Made by a program: the position numbers and the translations under genes. A stretch of 7,334 nucleotides of DNA, taken from IMG/VR virus record IMGVR_UViG_2639762982_000003; one strand, given 5' to 3'. Source of the DNA: a virus (Duplodnaviria; Heunggongvirae; Uroviricota; Caudoviricetes). The notes beneath the pieces were generated by a model. It made no database searches and was not told where the DNA came from. It saw only the letters and a program-made list of their open reading frames with translations. Positions 176 through 7,164 of this stretch are shown piece after piece (the first letter of the stretch is position 1; each line of letters opens with the position of its first letter).

Positions 176-526
176 TCAATTGATGCGTTCGCGCGCTGTT
201 TTTGCTTTATGGCAGGGCCAGCACAGACTCTGCAGGTTACTGTCTGCATCCGTGCCACCATGAGCTTTCGGAATGATGTGGTCCACAGTTCTGGCTTCAA
301 CAGCTCTCCCATTGCGCAGGCAGTTCTGACACAGATGATTATCACGCTTCAGTATGCGCGCACGTATGGCATCCCATTTCGAGCCATAGCCACGCTGGTG
401 GCGGCTCAGTCCGCGCTGGTGCTGCACCCAGCCTTCACCCCAATGTTTATCGCAGTAGCCCGAACTGTCTGTTGTTGTGCCTGCGCAGCCTCGCTTACGA
501 CATGCGCGGGGGATTCGTGATGGCAT
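176..526 (-). CDS. HNH endonuclease, phage terminase-associated (HK97 gp74-like)
   Basis: 116-aa ORF from the track with ATG at 524-526 and TGA at 176-178. Contains C-x2-C pairs (HLCQNC) and a D-H...N...C-W-P-C-H motif (DHIIPKAHGG...SNLQSLCWPCH) typical of zinc-binding HNH nucleases. It is the last gene of the minus-strand late operon, where lambdoid/HK97-like phages carry an HNH next to cos and terminase. Confidence 0.8.
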   Translation of the reverse strand: MPSRIPRACRKRGCAGTTTDSSGYCDKHWGEGWVQHQRGLSRHQRGYGSKWDAIRARILKRDNHLCQNCLRNGRAVEARTVDHIIPKAHGGTDADSNLQSLCWPCHKAKTARERIN

Positions 527-947: not shown

Positions 948-1157
948 ATGACAAGCTTTAATATAAATTTAAATGTAACAACAAAGGTTGAAACCATTTC
1001 TGACGTAGCTTTAGAAATTTCCCGTTTAAAAGTTACGATTGGAATATTATTGGCTAAACTACCTCCAGAACAGCGTGATTCATTCATTGCAGATCTAAAA
1101 GGCCTCGGGCTTAATGAAGAGGCCAGCTTATATAGTAATTTCAACCCAAAGATATAA
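948..1157 (+). CDS. hypothetical small protein, AT-rich moron-like gene opposite to the late operon (bor-like position)
   Basis: Plus-strand ORF (track 918..1157 starts at TTG). ATG at 948 is preceded by AAGGA at 937-941; alternative ATG at 942. Stop TAA at 1155-1157 is followed 25 nt later by a strong intrinsic terminator. AT-rich relative to neighbours. No recognisable family from sequence alone. Confidence 0.5.
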   Translation: MTSFNINLNVTTKVETISDVALEISRLKVTIGILLAKLPPEQRDSFIADLKGLGLNEEASLYSNFNPKI

Positions 1158-1181: not shown

Positions 1182-1210
1182 GGGGAGGGAGCACCTCCCC
1201 CCTTTTCTTT
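1182..1210 (+). terminator. rho-independent terminator of the plus-strand small gene
   Basis: 7-bp stem GGGGAGG (1182-1188) / CCTCCCC (1194-1200) with a 5-nt loop, followed by CC TTTTCTTTATTT. The opposite strand has no T-run, so it is unidirectional. Confidence 0.6.
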
Positions 1211-1395
1211 ATTTGGTGTATGTAATATTTCCTTTTAAGTAAAACGCTCCCGTATTATCAAATGCGCCCTCAGGTTTTTTATTGAGAATTTTTAATAATT
1301 TTGACTTCATAGCAATATTAAAAATCTTTGGGAAAAGAAACATATTTCCTCCTGAATAAATATGCGAGGATGAATTGAGTTCACTTTATCTAACC

Positions 1396-1575
1396 TCACT
1401 GCATACACTGCCGGATGCCATCAATCAGTTGGCAGGCCTGAGAAGCAGCGTCAAAAAACTGGCGCGCCTTATCCAGGCTAACGCATCCCGCCAATAAAAA
1501 AGGCACCAGTATCGCTACCAGTGCCCATTTCGCCGCCGTTCGCGGCATTCTGTGTGTCCAGTGTTTTCTGCTCAT
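1396..1575 (-). CDS. small lipoprotein, lysis-associated (possible Rz1/o-spanin-like)
   Basis: ATG at 1573-1575, 14 nt after the endolysin stop, with AGGTG upstream. N-terminus MSRKHWTHRMPRTAAKWALVAILVPFLLAGC has a positively charged n-region, a hydrophobic core and lipobox L-A-G-C (signal peptidase II type). Only about 29 residues remain after the Cys. The track ORF 1396..1647 is an N-terminally extended version. Confidence 0.55.
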   Translation of the reverse strand: MSRKHWTHRMPRTAAKWALVAILVPFLLAGCVSLDKARQFFDAASQACQLIDGIRQCMQ

Positions 1576-1589
1576 AACACACCTGGTTA

Positions 1590-1967
1590 TCAGCGTTTCA
1601 ACTGAAAGTGAGGCCCGTCTTTCAGTGTTTTCCAGTCCCCGCCCCATTCGATGGCAGTTCCCAGCTCTGCGGCAGCCTGCTTAAATGCCTGCGCGATTTT
1701 CTCGTACAGAGGCCAGTCCCATGACACCTGGCTGCCAATGTAGGCCACAACATCCACCGCATCACCGGTCAGGTGGCGGCTGTTCATGGTCTGGCTTTTC
1801 CCTTCCGCGACCAGCTGTTTCTGGCGATACTTACTGCGCAGGCCTTCCGTAATACCGAAATCAACCTCCGTCAGTTCCAGCGCACGGCGAACGACAGCAA
1901 CCAGCTGTGGTTTGACGCCCTCCAGATTCTTTTCGCTGCGACGACTAAATCTGAATTTACCCGACAT
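1590..1967 (-). CDS. endolysin, peptidase M15 family (phage T5-type L-alanyl-D-glutamate endopeptidase)
   Basis: Track ORF 1590..1973 begins at GTG; ATG at 1965-1967 has GAGGTGA just upstream. N-terminus MSGKFRFSRRSEKNLEGVKPQLVAVVRRALEL and the SRHLTGDAVDV zinc-binding motif match T5-type M15 endolysins as recalled. No signal peptide. Its start overlaps the stop of the upstream membrane-protein gene. Confidence 0.85.
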   Translation of the reverse strand: MSGKFRFSRRSEKNLEGVKPQLVAVVRRALELTEVDFGITEGLRSKYRQKQLVAEGKSQTMNSRHLTGDAVDVVAYIGSQVSWDWPLYEKIAQAFKQAAAELGTAIEWGGDWKTLKDGPHFQLKR

Positions 1968-1969
1968 AC

Positions 1970-2245
1970 TCACCTCAACAATGGAAAAATTCTTGCGACG
2001 TTCCCGCGTGCGCGTATTACCAGCACGCAGAACAGCAGATTAAAAAACACTTCCAGCCAGCCCGTTGCTAATGGGCGACCACACAGATAGCTGAGGGGCG
2101 CAAAGGCATACAGCAGCATCAGCAGCCAGGCCAGCCATGACATCAGCGGTTTATGTCTGGAATCACGGCGACGATAAAAAAAGAGCGTCAGCACGATAAC
2201 CGTGCATAACGCCACATTCAGCAATCCGGGAAGGTTACTTAACAT
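1970..2245 (-). CDS. holin-like membrane protein (second of two; holin or antiholin)
   Basis: 91-aa product starting at ATG 2243-2245 (internal Met of track ORF 1970..2299) with GGAGGAGG 6 nt upstream. Three hydrophobic segments (LLNVALCTVIVLTLFFY, LMSWLAWLLMLLYAFAPLSYL, WLEVFFNLLFCVLVI) and a basic C-terminus. Stop TGA 1970-1972 overlaps the endolysin GTG 1971-1973. Confidence 0.55.
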   Translation of the reverse strand: MLSNLPGLLNVALCTVIVLTLFFYRRRDSRHKPLMSWLAWLLMLLYAFAPLSYLCGRPLATGWLEVFFNLLFCVLVIRARGNVARIFPLLR

Positions 2246-2627
2246 TGCCGCCTCCTCCACCCCGCAGGCGGGAGAACAGGCCGGACACCAGCGATGCAAT
2301 ATCCTGCTGGTGGATGAACGACAGAATCTTCACCGACACCACTGACACCAGCACTGCACACAATGCGTCGACAGGCGCTCCGTCAAACCCTGTATGCTTT
2401 ACCAGCCAGGATGCCAGAACCTCTGCGCCCAGCACACCGATAATGAACGACACCAGAAAATGCGCCGCCACACGCCAGGCTGAAAGCGCCTGCGGCATCG
2501 TTGCCACAAATAACGCCCCGGCGAACGCACCAAACACAATCCCGAAATCCGTTCCGGTAAACAACCCGTACACCGTCGCCCCGCCGAGCGCCGCAGCCGT
2601 GCCGGAACCGGATAAGGGTTCAGACAT
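2235..2627 (-). CDS. holin-like membrane protein (first lysis gene)
   Basis: 130-aa product starting at ATG 2625-2627 (internal Met of track ORF 2235..2693) with AGGAGA 6 nt upstream. Three predicted TM segments and a charged C-terminus (RLRGGGGGNVK). Overlaps the start of the next gene by 11 nt. The track's 5' extension runs through a terminator hairpin and is rejected. Confidence 0.6.
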   Translation of the reverse strand: MSEPLSGSGTAAALGGATVYGLFTGTDFGIVFGAFAGALFVATMPQALSAWRVAAHFLVSFIIGVLGAEVLASWLVKHTGFDGAPVDALCAVLVSVVSVKILSFIHQQDIASLVSGLFSRLRGGGGGNVK

Positions 2628-2640
2628 ACTTTTTCTCCTG

Positions 2641-2667
2641 TAAATAAAAAAGGGCCACCAGCGGCCC
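2641..2667 (-). terminator. rho-independent terminator immediately upstream of the lysis cassette
   Basis: Hairpin GGGCC (2652-2656) / GGCCC (2663-2667) with a 6-nt loop; on the minus strand it is followed by TTTTTTATTT (complement of 2641-2651). The plus strand has no T-run after the hairpin. Confidence 0.55.
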
Positions 2668-2990: not shown

Positions 2991-3017
2991 AAAAAAAACC
3001 GCCCGATAGAGGCGGTT
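2991..3017 (-). terminator. rho-independent terminator downstream of the tRNA array
   Basis: Stem AACCGCC (2997-3003) / GGCGGTT (3011-3017) with a 7-nt loop. On the minus strand the hairpin is followed by eight Ts (complement of the A-run 2991-2998). Confidence 0.6.
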
Positions 3018-3284: not shown

Positions 3285-3359
<75 letters not shown>

Positions 3360-3362
3360 ATA

Positions 3363-3438
<76 letters not shown>

Positions 3439-3440
3439 AC

Positions 3441-3517
3441 TGGACCGCCACCGGGGACTCGAACCTCGCACACTCAACTTAAAGGGTTGACGCTCTTTCC
3501 TGATGAGCTAGTGGCGG
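3441..3517 (-). tRNA. tRNA-like gene, anticodon loop CCUUUAA (UUU, Lys, in canonical register); non-canonical, possibly a pseudo-tRNA
   Basis: 77-nt cloverleaf: acceptor CCGCCAC/GTGGCGG, U8 A9, D-stem GCTC/GAGC, perfect 5-bp anticodon stem TCAAC/GTTGA, T-loop TTCGAGT, encoded CCA. Position 33 is C rather than the near-universal U, and the T-stem has an A-C mismatch. Confidence 0.5.
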
Positions 3518-3518
3518 C

Positions 3519-3594
3519 TGGTGGCCCTTGCTGGATTTGAACCAGCGACCTGGCGATTATGAGTCGCTCGCTCTCACCACTGAGCTAAAGGGCC
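3519..3594 (-). tRNA. tRNA with anticodon CAU, ileX/ileZ-like (tRNA-Ile2 read as AUA after lysidine modification, or elongator Met)
   Basis: 76-nt cloverleaf: acceptor GGCCCTT/AAGGGCC, D-stem GCTC/GAGC, anticodon loop CUCAUAA (CAU), T-stem GCTGG/CCAGC, T-loop TTCAAAT, discriminator A, encoded CCA. Closely resembles E. coli ileX as recalled. Separated from the next tRNA by 1 nt. Confidence 0.75.
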
Positions 3595-3776: not shown

Positions 3777-3805
3777 AATATATGCCTTTCAATCTACTTT
3801 TGCAA
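3777..3805 (-). promoter_or_regulatory. candidate late promoter (PR'-like) overlapping the 3' end of the Q gene
   Basis: Minus-strand -35 TTGCAA (3805..3800), 17-nt spacer containing the Q stop codon, -10 TATATT (3782..3777). Predicted start near 3770; a -10-like TGaTATTTT element at about +6 to +14 resembles the sigma70-dependent pause element used for Q loading in lambdoid phages. Confidence 0.45.
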
Positions 3806-4478
3806 CACTTTGCTTTGAAAATGCCGCCTTTTGTTTTGAACGTGTTCTCATTACAAACAATAAAGCCTCACTATCAAGTCGGTGAAAAATGTGTTTCATT
3901 GCAACCCAGTGACGAGTAAATGTTTTGGACCAGTTTTTAGTTGTCACTCCCGCCAGTAATGCCAGCTCCTGGTATTCATAACCTTCCCCACCAAAAAGTT
4001 CTGCTTTTAATGCCTGCGCCGCCAGCCAGATTAATTTTTTCAGGCGTTCCTGCGTTTTCCCTGCAATTTTTCTGGTACCGGATTGAGTATTAAATTCATT
4101 CCACGCCCACTGTGTTATCGCGATCTGATATTCCCAACAAATACTCCCGCTGTAACACCACAACAACCAGGCTTTATGATGTTCTTCAAGAGACAGAACT
4201 GCCCGTCGCCATGATGATGTCGAAAACTCAACCTGACTTACCAGAGCAATTGATGAGCCTTTCGCCAGTGATTGTTTTCCCGGTATCGGTGGACTATCCC
4301 GCGTTATCATTCTTCCAGTCACTTCATCGCGGTACCGGATTTTTTTACGCCTGTAACGCCCTGTATCAAACATGGCATTCTCCTGCCAGGCTTCAAGCTG
4401 ACCTTTTGTTGCCCCACTCAAATCAGCGGTAGCGATAATGAGCTGCTCACGCACAAACTGTAAATACTGGTTATTCAT
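3789..4478 (-). CDS. putative late-gene antiterminator Q (Qin QuuQ/phage 82-like by position)
   Basis: 229-aa product from ATG 4476-4478 (track ORF starts 2 codons earlier at GTG) with GGAG upstream. Its ATG overlaps the rusA stop (ATGA). Sits immediately downstream of rusA and upstream of a PR'/tR'-like module, tRNAs and the lysis cassette, which is the canonical Q position. The family assignment rests on synteny; only two Cys are present. Confidence 0.6.
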   Translation of the reverse strand: MNNQYLQFVREQLIIATADLSGATKGQLEAWQENAMFDTGRYRRKKIRYRDEVTGRMITRDSPPIPGKQSLAKGSSIALVSQVEFSTSSWRRAVLSLEEHHKAWLLWCYSGSICWEYQIAITQWAWNEFNTQSGTRKIAGKTQERLKKLIWLAAQALKAELFGGEGYEYQELALLAGVTTKNWSKTFTRHWVAMKHIFHRLDSEALLFVMRTRSKQKAAFSKQSVAKVD

Positions 4479-4834
4479 GCGCACTCCAGTTCTGTGATTT
4501 TTATCCCCAGCCGACCACCAGGAACAGGCAGTCCGCGCACAATATTGATTTCATCAAACTGCTCGTCGTCTATGAGAAGTCCGGCATGCGTCAGCGCATC
4601 CAGTGGTGCCTTCAGGATATTGTCCAGGTCGCGGCGGCGCTTATCCGGTGGCTCTGCAATAATTTTTATTGCCAGCCTTCCGGACAGGTTTAATTTCAAC
4701 CGCTGCTGGCGAACAATTAGTGCCACATCACGGCGATAACGCTCACCGACTTTTGATACAAAATATGTGTTGCCACGACGTCGCCAGTAAGTATTCACCG
4801 TCGGCGGATAAGGCAAAACAAACTCTATACGCAT
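4475..4834 (-). CDS. rusA: crossover junction endodeoxyribonuclease RusA (Holliday junction resolvase)
   Basis: 119-aa ORF with ATG at 4832-4834 and AGAGG upstream. Protein aligns by eye with E. coli RusA, including the catalytic RRRDLDN motif and a GGRL C-terminal region. Confidence 0.85.
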   Translation of the reverse strand: MRIEFVLPYPPTVNTYWRRRGNTYFVSKVGERYRRDVALIVRQQRLKLNLSGRLAIKIIAEPPDKRRRDLDNILKAPLDALTHAGLLIDDEQFDEINIVRGLPVPGGRLGIKITELECA

Positions 4835-4846
4835 CAGTAACCTCTT

Positions 4847-5968
4847 TTACCCGAGCACGCCGGTTGCAAAGGCGTGATCAAGAAAACGAAAAATTAAATC
4901 AACCTGGGAACCATGCTTTTCTTCGAACGCCAGCGGATCCGCATGAAGTTCGTTGTGATGTTCCCGGCACAACGGTAGCGTGAAAATATCGTGGGCCTTT
5001 GTTCCCATCCCTCCCTGACCGTGACCAATCAGGTGATGGGGATCGTCGGCTGGCTGACCACAACACGCACACGGCTGTGTCTTCACCCAGCGCGTATATT
5101 TCTCATTTACCCAACGGCGACGTTTAGGTCGCCTCATGAAAGATTCCGGAGACTCCGGATCAACGGTGATGCATACCACCGTCTTTTCCTGTGGTGGGTT
5201 CTGTTGCTGGTGGGCATGAGGCAACGGCGCAAGATTTTTTGTGCGCTGCTTCAGTATGCTGGTGGCGGTCTGCTCTCCCGGTACGATGTCGCTTTCGCGG
5301 TACAAGGAGCGGATTTTTTCCGCACGTACCCCCAGAGAACGACGTAATACTGCCTCCGGAAGCGCGTCCGCCACCTGATTGCAGACCGCCCACCAAGATA
5401 ATTCAGCCAGCGACAATTCCCGCTCCTGCGTGCCATTCATTGCATGGCGTATGACGTCAATCATCCATGCTGACAGGTTTTGATGAGCAAGTTGCCCGAG
5501 TGATTCGGATGTCTGGTCACGCAACTGGTTGTCGCAGTGCCAGCACAACACCATCGCGCTGGTACCGTAACGATGTATGACGATTTCACTGTGATGATAG
5601 TCACCATGAGGCCACTGGCAGGATTTGACATGACGCAACAGCCAGTCAGACAGTGCCCCAGCGCCGCCAGCAGCACGAATCACCCGCTCATCGCTGAAAA
5701 ATGGCAGTAATGATTTATCCTCCGCCAGCGGCTGGCGAACGGCAGGGACGACTCCGGACGGCAGACCGCGCATGCTTTTCGGTTCAGGCTCCACCAGCAC
5801 TCGAGGGTTATGAAATACTTGCATGGATTCACGGCCCGGCCTAAGGACCACCAGCCCGAGTTCCGGTACCAGAACAGGTCGAAGTAATATCCGCACGTTA
5901 CCTCCAGATCCGTTGCTGGTATGTGCGGGATGGGTGCGGTGGGCGTTCGGAATAAGGGAGCCTGACAT
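4847..5968 (-). CDS. DUF968 family protein (Qin YdfU-like) with C-terminal HNH-like Cys/His motif; start codon uncertain
   Basis: 373-aa ORF with ATG at 5966-5968 but weak RBS; alternative ATG at 5822-5824 (Met49). C-terminal region QPCACCGQPADDPHHLIGHG...LCREHHNELH is Cys/His rich and resembles a His-Me finger nuclease. Same position relative to hokD and Q as ydfU in K-12 Qin. The first 71 nt overlap the upstream ORF in another frame. Confidence 0.7.
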   Translation of the reverse strand: MSGSLIPNAHRTHPAHTSNGSGGNVRILLRPVLVPELGLVVLRPGRESMQVFHNPRVLVEPEPKSMRGLPSGVVPAVRQPLAEDKSLLPFFSDERVIRAAGGAGALSDWLLRHVKSCQWPHGDYHHSEIVIHRYGTSAMVLCWHCDNQLRDQTSESLGQLAHQNLSAWMIDVIRHAMNGTQERELSLAELSWWAVCNQVADALPEAVLRRSLGVRAEKIRSLYRESDIVPGEQTATSILKQRTKNLAPLPHAHQQQNPPQEKTVVCITVDPESPESFMRRPKRRRWVNEKYTRWVKTQPCACCGQPADDPHHLIGHGQGGMGTKAHDIFTLPLCREHHNELHADPLAFEEKHGSQVDLIFRFLDHAFATGVLG

Positions 5969-6472: not shown

Positions 6473-6865
6473 CTACTGCCCTGTTTTAACGAAGTTTTTA
6501 AAGGAAACAACTGCCTGATAGGGGTTTGGTTGACAGCCAAACATATTATCGCAAAAAGGCTTGATGAAAATTCTTGAGGATCCATCTTCATTTGGCATTT
6601 TACTCACTTGATAAGCGAGGAATGGACTATTTGGAGAGGGATTATAAGTGGAAATTAGCGTGTCTGTCGCCGTTTGAATTTTCCATGAGGAATTATTAGC
6701 CAACCAGAATTGCGCTCGTTTCCAATAAAAGTCACATTGCTTTTCATCATTACATGTTAGTGGCTTCATTGCTTCTGCTTTCAACGCTGGATCGACCTTT
6801 GCTGCACACCCTCCCAACATTACTGTTGCAATCATTACACCTGCAACTAAAACAAGTTTCTTCAT
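6473..6865 (-). CDS. secreted lipoprotein, AT-rich moron-like cargo gene
   Basis: 130-aa ORF with ATG at 6863-6865 and GGGAG upstream. N-terminus MKKLVLVAGVMIATVMLGGC is a classic SPase II signal with lipobox LGGC. The mature part has four further Cys in two C-x5-C pairs. AT-rich relative to flanking genes and bracketed by two similar terminator hairpins. Confidence 0.7.
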   Translation of the reverse strand: MKKLVLVAGVMIATVMLGGCAAKVDPALKAEAMKPLTCNDEKQCDFYWKRAQFWLANNSSWKIQTATDTLISTYNPSPNSPFLAYQVSKMPNEDGSSRIFIKPFCDNMFGCQPNPYQAVVSFKNFVKTGQ

Positions 6866-7008: not shown

Positions 7009-7164
7009 TTACTCCTCAGGTTCGTAAGCTGTGAAGACAGCGACCTCCGTCTGGCCGGTTCGGATTCGTACCTCGCAGAGGTCTTTCCTCGTTACCAGTA
7101 CCGTCACTATGACGGTTAAACAGATGACGATCAGGGCGATTAACATCGCCTTTTGCTGCTTCAT
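7009..7164 (-). CDS. hokD: Hok family type I toxin (HokD/RelF)
   Basis: 51-codon minus-strand ORF not in the track (below its length cutoff): ATG at 7162-7164, TAA at 7009-7011, AGGAGA 9 nt upstream. Translation MKQQKAMLIALIVICLTVIVTVLVTRKDLCEVRIRTGQTEVAVFTAYEPEE matches the Hok/Gef family and essentially E. coli HokD as recalled. Confidence 0.9.
   Translation of the reverse strand: MKQQKAMLIALIVICLTVIVTVLVTRKDLCEVRIRTGQTEVAVFTAYEPEE

Follow-up and report, generated by a model that had tools for sequence, protein, structure and literature searches.

The window analysed here, the whole 7,334-nucleotide stretch of IMG/VR record IMGVR_UViG_2639762982_000003, contains the late lysis cassette of a phiP27-type temperate phage resident as a prophage in Escherichia coli, and our main subject is the last gene of that cassette, which encodes a 59-aa lipoprotein. 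A prophage of E. coli CV839-06 matches the window at 100% identity, as do sequences of several porcine enterotoxigenic E. coli (ETEC) strains, and the Shiga toxin 2e (Stx2e) phage phiP27 shares 94% DNA identity with it over most of the cassette. The first-pass annotation had described two overlapping holin-like membrane proteins, an M15 endopeptidase and a lipoprotein; the order of these genes, the four open reading frames (ORFs), their coordinates and the overlap are all borne out on the minus strand, where every gene of interest lies, and PGAP annotated the four cassette genes likewise in the identical CV839-06 prophage.

The cassette begins with a 130-aa protein of the Phage_holin_8 family (holin 1, 2235..2627; ATG after CAGGAGAAAAAGT; Pfam E 2.8e-22, 79.6 bits against a cutoff of 26.4; phrog_198, holin). 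It is followed by a 91-aa protein of the Phage_holin_3_7 family (holin 2, 1970..2245; GGAGGAGG Shine-Dalgarno sequence before its ATG; E 1.3e-22, 80 bits against a cutoff of 25.4; phrog_217, holin), and the two genes overlap by 11 nt (2235-2245). Three hydrophobic peaks emerge from a simple hydropathy scan of each protein, in agreement with the three transmembrane (TM) segments proposed for each, and holin 2 has a positively charged loop 1 and C-terminus and a class-I-like topology. Both are small multi-TM proteins encoded directly upstream of the endolysin, and the Pfam and PHROG profile searches place both in holin families above the gathering scores, although Pfam labels Phage_holin_8 and Phage_holin_3_7 alike as "putative". 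The suggestion that the second membrane protein might act as a spanin finds no evidence. In a 2025 study of porcine Shiga toxin-producing E. coli, loss of a 130-aa homologue (WP_032083190) by deletion put an end to enrofloxacin-induced Stx2e release, which returned when the gene was supplied on a plasmid (PMC12571312). The primers of that study largely match the start region of holin 1, with one mismatch in the first 20 nt of the gene. Genetic evidence, from toxin release, is thus available only for the 130-aa type of the two holin-family proteins.

The third gene encodes the endolysin, 125 aa long when started at the ATG that follows GAGGTGA (1590..1967). The overlap of its start with the preceding stop, as first described, holds for an alternative GTG start at 1973 (1590-1973), which shares the sequence GTGA with the TGA stop of holin 2. 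The protein matches Peptidase_M15_4 (E 1.6e-12; 48.2 bits, cutoff 25) and phrog_465 (E 1.9e-75), and the zinc-ligand motifs H-x6-D and a C-terminal H are present (SRHLTGDAVD ... DGPHFQL), so that by sequence it qualifies as an M15C L-alanyl-D-glutamate endopeptidase. The earlier label "T5-type" is right at the level of the family and misses the closest relatives, since the best matches in the PDB are 23ri, 8q2g and ChiX (5opz) at E about 1e-43, with the T5 endolysin (2mxz) more distant at E 1.5e-23. No export signal or signal-arrest-release (SAR) segment was detected in the endolysin sequence, which therefore needs a hole-forming holin.

The lipoprotein gene (1396..1575, minus strand) begins 15 nt past the endolysin stop codon, with an AGGTG Shine-Dalgarno sequence 4 nt upstream of the first ATG. 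Its predicted prolipoprotein product belongs to phrog_7528, a family of unknown function (E 2.2e-34), and searches of Pfam, NCBIfam and the PDB returned nothing significant (DUF7442 at E 0.13; no PDB match below E 1.5). The leader consists of a long basic n-region, SRKHWTHRMPRTAAKW, followed by an h-region and the lipobox LLAG-C, after which, just as had been noted at first, only a very short mature part of 29 residues remains. The lipobox reads LLAG-C-V-S here and is conserved as L(V/A)GC across all homologues; with valine at position +2 and no Lol-avoidance residue, sorting to the outer membrane is to be expected. Counted from the cysteine predicted to be lipid-modified, the cysteines follow the pattern C-x16-C-x8-C, and the lipobox cysteine, C48 and C57 are invariant in homologues from E. 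coli, Salmonella, Citrobacter, Yersinia, Enterobacter and Lelliottia, down to 50-56% identity. As far as can be read from the sequence, the protein would thus resemble the outer-membrane lipoprotein subunit (o-spanin) of a two-component spanin both in its sorting signal and in having a conserved periplasmic cysteine. AlphaFold2, run on the family alignment, returned a single helix at pLDDT 70 with the mature part predicted to be helical; the mature part is amphipathic (hydrophobic moment, muH, 0.53-0.59) and has a net charge of 0 in the window or -1 in the consensus.

The lipoprotein ORF is a real gene under purifying selection. Pairwise Nei-Gojobori comparison of 50 unique gene sequences from 90 loci, with all reading frames intact, yielded a dN/dS of 0.21, versus 0.95 and 2.4 in two alternative frames; one further sequence group of six loci (L037) gave no parsed ORF and lies outside this set. 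In the mature part, variable sites are distributed over the three codon positions as 11, 4 and 21, which supports coding. By region, dN/dS is 0.16 for codons 1-9, 0.29 for the signal peptide and 0.19 for the mature part, and we favour the start giving 59/60 aa over the often-annotated 51-aa start because of the selection on codons 1-9 and the AGGTG before the first ATG. The GC content of the gene agrees with that of the cassette and not with that of the low-GC segment downstream. An extended version of the ORF of 83 aa was also considered and set aside: it is not conserved, its N-terminus is an alternative frame of the endolysin 3' end, and loci with an intervening insertion do not have it. 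Within the n-region, a motif R-K/R-H-W-T-H-R-x-P-R (codons 2-16, window 1528-1572, minus strand) is kept in every subfamily, a conservation that is odd for the n-region of a signal peptide; no gene overlaps the motif here, and the Rz frame overlaps it in the Rz1 genes of SfV and Klebsiella prophages.

The other half of a two-component spanin is a linked type II inner-membrane protein (i-spanin, or Rz), and we scanned every start codon in all six frames for ORFs whose product would have one TM segment, at the N-terminus, followed by a hydrophilic tail of 40 aa or more. In the window, 1396-1700 included, no such ORF was found near the cassette, whether embedded, overlapping or adjacent, in agreement with the first-pass annotation, which had recognised no Rz. 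The alternative ORFs around 1396-1700, a 34-aa GTG ORF (1478-1582) and a 47-aa ORF inside the endolysin gene, both lack a TM segment. The same scan of the whole 42.6-kb phiP27 genome gave nothing spanin-like; its flagged product L22 (409 aa, with an N-terminal TM segment, a coiled coil and a GIY-YIG domain) can be dismissed: it is far too large, its nuclease domain is cytoplasmic, its gene precedes stx, and the window lacks it. Searches with tblastn for four types of Rz found no match in 83 related loci, and the ORFs in the gap regions of 16 representative loci are only small TM ORFs of 37-75 aa. A linked inner-membrane partner was thus found neither in the window nor in the phiP27 genome nor in the 83 loci, and the 29 mature residues, with no partner, fall short of bridging the periplasm.

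Nevertheless, phiP27 has a published spanin assignment. Kongari et al. 2018 (PMC6139136) class it among the "separated" two-component spanins. As i-spanin they give 20348-20542 (64 aa), and as o-spanin 20706-20861 (51 aa), whose mature part has 30 residues and is 83% helical by Jpred. Each subunit forms a singleton family, the two are the shortest of that data set, and together they have 62 periplasmic residues. The window lipoprotein is a homologue of this o-spanin. The proposed i-spanin lies inside an insertion of about 480 nt between endolysin and lipoprotein, which is absent from the window and from all but two surveyed loci. It has a TTG start and no PHROG match, and antisense to it runs a 90-aa ORF that matches phrog_36812 (E 5e-20; in our phiP27 locus, L002, the two ORFs occupy 5287-5481 and 5271-5543, respectively). 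A related insertion occurs in just one more locus, L077, where the antisense ORF persists with 46% identity and the sense ORF is down to 36 aa. We therefore rejected the 64-aa ORF as a partner, being unconserved and antisense to a better-supported gene; judging from these comparisons, the published i-spanin call for phiP27 is probably spurious and the lipoprotein an orphan. The 62-residue minimum of that survey was phiP27 itself, counted with this doubtful partner. In the GenBank and RefSeq records of phiP27, the lipoprotein gene is unannotated and L31 and L32 are placed in other frames. Pinto et al. 2021 report Rz in 277 of 279 Shiga toxin (Stx) phages, and a metallopeptidase-endolysin pham (2 phages) and a classical holin that are exclusive to cluster C; we infer that the two Stx phages without Rz are those cluster C phages.

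The leader of the lipoprotein points to its source. The first ~35 residues (n-region, h-region and lipobox) are homologous to the leader of Rz1 from SfV, SfII, SfIV and Klebsiella prophages, the "Mu" o-spanin family of Kongari et al.; against the SfV-type Rz1, hhalign gives a probability of 96.9% and E 2e-10 over columns 1-37, and BLASTP gives 49% identity. The shared leader has the form M-x-x-SR-x-HW-x-HR-x-PR-x-x-x-KW (SRSHWxHREPR in SfV and Klebsiella), and in both systems the gene ends the lysis cassette, before an HNH/terminase module. In contrast, the SfV-type Rz1 has a proline-rich mature domain of ~74 residues and overlaps a 130-aa Rz, whereas the window lipoprotein has 29 helical residues and no Rz. 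Homology to the SfV/Mu-type Rz1 family is confined to the leader: a resemblance seen by eye between the mature 29 residues and the C-terminal part of the SfV-type Rz1 (SLD...C...IR) was rejected by Smith-Waterman alignment with 2000 shuffles (p 0.2-0.98), and hhalign does not align the two. Neither Pfam Rz1 nor NCBIfam LysC matched the lipoprotein at E up to 1, and phrog_6073, an Rz-like spanin, did so only at E 0.06.

The position of the gene tells a similar story. In the Stx phage GER2, which carries a lambda-type Rz/Rz1, two bases separate the end of a small TM gene (phrog_4493) from the Rz start codon, and in phiP27-like cassettes the same spacing separates this gene from the start codon of the lipoprotein. 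The DNA of the two is colinear as far as the ...TGGTGGTGATATGA start and divergent beyond it; the mini-lipoprotein therefore sits exactly at the Rz position, with the same slot, the small TM gene upstream and the ...TGGTGGTGATATG junction common to both. GER2 differs in having a complete embedded two-component spanin. Together with 12 related IMG/VR contigs and the O104:H4 strains, it possesses the full S-R-Rz/Rz1 set plus a 64-75% similar copy of the lipoprotein gene further downstream, upstream of the terminase (GER2, L004, 3001-3165; contigs L106-L117; E. coli O104:H4, H190 and H191). Translation of the copy in GER2 and the 12 contigs shows that it has lost its start and has 3-4 in-frame stops; the O104:H4 copy is known solely as an unannotated match at 75% identity. 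A pseudogene in the only lineage found with Rz/Rz1 would be expected if the lipoprotein were redundant with a spanin. From the sequence relationships, the most likely history is that the lipoprotein arose from an SfV/Mu-type Rz1, keeping the leader and lipobox, acquiring an unrelated short mature domain, and losing Rz.

The codons for the signal peptide also contain a terminator-like RNA hairpin. It covers codons 17-28 (1491..1526, minus strand) and reads GGGCACUGGUA-GCGA-UACUGGUGCCU then UUUUUAUU; the terminator scan places the hairpin itself at 1526-1501, and its predicted minimum free energy is -23.9 kcal/mol (z -4.5). Third codon positions are variable at 0 of 9 sites in codons 17-26 versus 31 of 46 elsewhere (50 unique sequences; Fisher p 2e-4), and dS is 0.10 in the signal peptide versus 0.24-0.29 elsewhere. 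The signal peptide is the best-conserved part of the gene, with a low dS, because the hairpin freezes its synonymous sites. The rare substitutions in the hairpin preserve pairing through G-U or preserve the GNRA loop. The 56%-identical Lelliottia homologue has it intact. Reading and folding the DNA of the GER2 pseudogene showed that, although the reading frame is destroyed there, both the ...GTGGTGATATGA junction and the hairpin have survived. A stable G+C-rich stem, a U-run directly behind it and conservation beyond coding needs are what a predicted intrinsic terminator should have, and the element probably stops transcripts not modified by the antitermination protein Q at the end of the lysis module, while Q-modified polymerase would read through. 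This is then a signal peptide constrained by RNA structure.

The gene is widespread, occurring in 352 of 5426 complete E. coli genomes (about 6.5%). The context survey comprised 80 IMG/VR loci, these being the best matches to the window's protein, together with genome and assembly loci. In the surveyed cassettes, Phage_holin_8 comes first, followed by Phage_holin_3_7, an M15 or GH108/PG_binding_3 endolysin and the lipoprotein, which is always the last gene. The compact arrangement, with 18 nt between endolysin and lipoprotein in survey coordinates, is found in 48 of 83 loci; the others have variable insertions with a 93-aa ORF (phrog_33497) and small TM proteins (37-75 aa; phrog_4493, phrog_1115, phrog_4906). 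The cassettes are joined to at least three packaging modules (P27 terS/HNH, lambda Nu1/GpA and Terminase_2), and in Lelliottia the genes before the lipoprotein encode a lambda-S-type holin and a GH108 endolysin. The earlier proposal that the cassette is incomplete thus runs against the recurrence of the compact arrangement, the frequency of the gene among E. coli genomes and the purifying selection on it. The small membrane proteins of phrog_4493 and phrog_1115 (37-60 aa, C-terminal TM segment, unknown function; for example L004 1630-1782, L049 4826-4999 and L096 3859-3972) have a coding-like substitution pattern; they occur just upstream of Rz in Stx phages and just upstream of the mini-lipoprotein in many phiP27-like cassettes, and they are absent from the window.

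We propose that the mini-lipoprotein of phiP27-type cassettes is an Rz1-derived orphan that serves the outer-membrane step of lysis alone, a reading that we hold to stand at about an even balance. The four cassette genes would be expressed together by Q-dependent late transcription, one or both holins would permeabilise the inner membrane at a set time, and the endopeptidase would then escape and cut the peptidoglycan. By then the amphipathic peptide of 29 residues, held by its lipid anchor, would already reside in the inner leaflet of the outer membrane, where it would serve the outer-membrane step without an inner-membrane partner; we speculate that disulfide-linked oligomers of amphipathic helices may act on the inner leaflet once the wall is gone. 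The earlier suggestion of a non-canonical role for the lipoprotein is supported. A bolder and distinctly tentative version, which we rather doubt, would make it a third kind of outer-membrane disruptor: some 29 amphipathic residues on a lipid anchor, with disulfides that close the peptide or cross-link it, breaking the outer membrane from its inner leaflet with no partner and no membrane fusion, and evolved from an o-spanin by loss of Rz and of the proline-rich linker.

Several points weigh against an outer-membrane role carried out alone. That role is itself read from the sequence, 29 residues cannot span the periplasm, and we know of no mechanism by which an anchored uncharged peptide would break the outer membrane. 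Lysis in shaken laboratory cultures does not require spanins, and these phages may simply lack an outer-membrane step, the lipoprotein doing something else. The embedded hairpin accounts for part of the sequence conservation without any protein function, the tight lysis linkage may partly reflect the close kinship of the sampled prophages, and the pseudogene argument amounts to one evolutionary event, its 12 loci being near-identical. Finally, the Rz survey used four reference i-spanins and an ORF and hydropathy scan, which a very unusual partner could escape.

The last point leads to the possibility that the lipoprotein is half of a true two-component spanin whose partner is very small or unconventional, be it the 64-aa ORF of Kongari et al., one of the 37-60-aa TM proteins or a holin-family protein. 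The published "separated" listing of phiP27 speaks for it, as do the coding-like small TM ORFs that immediately precede the lipoprotein in some 40% of the loci surveyed and the conserved periplasmic cysteine pair, which is like that of o-spanins such as T4 PseT.2. Each proposed partner, however, meets an obstacle. The 64-aa ORF suffers from the rarity of its insertion, its TTG start, its lack of a PHROG, its position antisense to a phrog_36812-matching ORF and its shrinkage in L077. The small TM proteins (phrog_4493, phrog_1115, phrog_4906) were considered as hidden i-spanins and rejected: their genes are missing from the 48 loci with the compact arrangement, the window included, their TM segment is C-terminal with almost no periplasmic tail, and the phrog_4493 gene also precedes a complete Rz in GER2 and so is no substitute for one. 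A holin as partner is hard to reconcile with the different holin family beside the lipoprotein in Lelliottia. We regard such a hidden partner as improbable. We give more credit, while still thinking it unlikely, to the view that the protein is an accessory envelope lipoprotein without a part in lysis, serving superinfection exclusion or receptor masking like T5 Llp or Cor, or Bor-like conversion, with the outer membrane left to mechanical forces. Small outer-membrane lipoproteins with a disulfide do serve receptor masking (T5 Llp), accessory genes are known from the interval between the lysis and the packaging genes, and here a low-GC segment directly follows. Functioning spanin-less systems exist as well, such as the Salmonella type 10 secretion system (T10SS), and the missing mechanism for a 29-residue spanin substitute counts on this side too. 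But the gene has no promoter of its own, follows the endolysin stop closely and equals the cassette in GC, and its linkage to lysis genes across at least three unrelated packaging/virion modules argues against a receptor-specific role. Its occupation of the exact Rz start position, its decay where Rz/Rz1 is present and its o-spanin-derived leader are likewise difficult to explain for an accessory gene. Least likely of these three alternatives, and very improbable in our judgement, is that the ORF is a decaying Rz1 remnant in which the hairpin and not the protein is conserved. The hairpin is indeed the most conserved stretch, with frozen synonymous sites, it survives in the GER2 pseudogene, and the leader is Rz1-derived; yet the mature part, which lies outside the hairpin, shows the low dN/dS and the codon-position pattern of a selected protein, the frame is intact in 50 of 50 unique copies (the six-locus L037 group giving no parsed ORF), and the three cysteines are invariant as far as 56%-identical homologues. 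It is this codon-level evidence that places the remnant last.

We compared the proposed orphan lipoprotein with known lysis systems. Its closest counterpart is phiP27 (NC_003356; L28-L32), which has the same two holins, M15 endolysin and lipoprotein (80% identical) and differs in the insertion of about 480 nt between endolysin and lipoprotein, missing in the window. The unimolecular spanin gp11 of T1 likewise comes from one gene of a lysis cassette and bears an outer-membrane lipoprotein signal, but it has a C-terminal TM segment and a periplasm-spanning domain, and the window lipoprotein has neither: its sole hydrophobic segment is the signal peptide, and the C-terminus reads ...GIRQCMQ. The earlier suggestion of a unimolecular spanin-like protein fails for want of that defining C-terminal segment. 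To our knowledge, the disruptin gp28 of phage phiKT carries no lipoprotein signal. Its describers present gp28 as a short amphipathic helical peptide that replaces the spanin at the outer-membrane step in a spanin-less E. coli phage, and in their title as a cationic antimicrobial peptide (bioRxiv 10.1101/515445), whereas the window lipoprotein is predicted to be lipid-anchored. With its lipobox and a net charge of 0 to -1, the latter is not the cationic, unanchored amphipathic peptide that a disruptin is. The ChiWXYZ (type 10 secretion) system of Serratia likewise has a holin and M15C module, and the window endopeptidase is close to ChiX (E 8e-43); ChiY and ChiZ, however, are conventional spanins, and the window cassette instead belongs to a complete prophage with terminase, portal and capsid genes.

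In order of transcription, the window runs from a hokD-like toxin gene through DUF968, RusA, Q, four tRNA genes, the lysis cassette and a short low-GC segment to an HNH endonuclease (176-526, minus strand; PGAP, identical prophage), and past the window edge the CV839-06 record continues with a P27-type small terminase, large terminase, portal and capsid. The antitermination protein Q (3789..4484, minus strand, from the PGAP annotation of the identical prophage) is, by analogy with lambdoid phage organisation, the likely activator of the late transcript carrying the cassette. Between Q and the cassette lie four tRNA genes (3285-3594, minus strand) for Gly-UCC, Thr-UGU, Lys-UUU and a CAU-anticodon tRNA, the last being Met according to ARAGORN and Ile according to PGAP; an Rfam search of the window matched these four tRNAs and nothing else. 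Just upstream of holin 1, the terminator scan found a further hairpin, with GGGCCGCUGGUGGCCC and a U-run (2652..2667, minus strand), a candidate tR'-type terminator that Q-modified polymerase would read through. Another terminator-like hairpin lies at 2997-3017.

The low-GC segment (36-40%) after the cassette lies where phiP27 has L33 and resembles an inserted accessory segment. It includes an unannotated 44-aa ORF (1209-1343, minus strand) with a strong Shine-Dalgarno sequence, AGGAGG, and a 69-aa ORF that converges on it (948-1157, plus strand; phrog_6806, unknown function), with a G+C-rich hairpin at 1182-1200 between them that is possibly a bidirectional terminator. At the other end of the window, a 51-aa Hok-family type I toxin (7009-7164, minus strand) is named hokD in the identical E. 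coli record. A second lipoprotein of 130 aa (6473-6865, minus strand; lipobox LGG-C, cysteine-rich), annotated as hypothetical, is encoded in the early (nin-like) region, outside the lysis cassette, and has no C-terminal TM segment. Among the relatives, the SerU-LTIIb phage (L007 3133-5757) has the LT-IIb genes directly after the endolysin of the same two-holin module, and three further loci (L102-L104) have a pertussis-like toxin gene upstream of the holins of that module; the two-holin cassette is therefore a common neighbour of secreted toxins.

The cassette as such was already known from phiP27. What is new is the orphan status of the lipoprotein, the Rz1 ancestry of its leader, the way it exactly replaces Rz, and the embedded terminator-like hairpin; these details cast doubt on the published phiP27 spanin assignment. 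The last step of Gram-negative lysis is considered to depend on a spanin or, in rare cases, on a cationic "disruptin", and about 13% of phages have no recognisable spanin according to Kongari et al. (PMC6139136). For the question of how such phages break the outer membrane, the present cassette is a case that can be worked on in E. coli, with a 180-nt gene that sits in the Rz slot, is kept by selection and has no partner. If the lipoprotein works alone, it would define a minimal outer-membrane-active lipopeptide and correct the entry for the "shortest spanin". If it has no role in lysis, then a widespread family of temperate phages, among them carriers of the Stx2e and LT-II toxins, would lyse E. 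coli without an outer-membrane function, which would bear on how these toxins are released.

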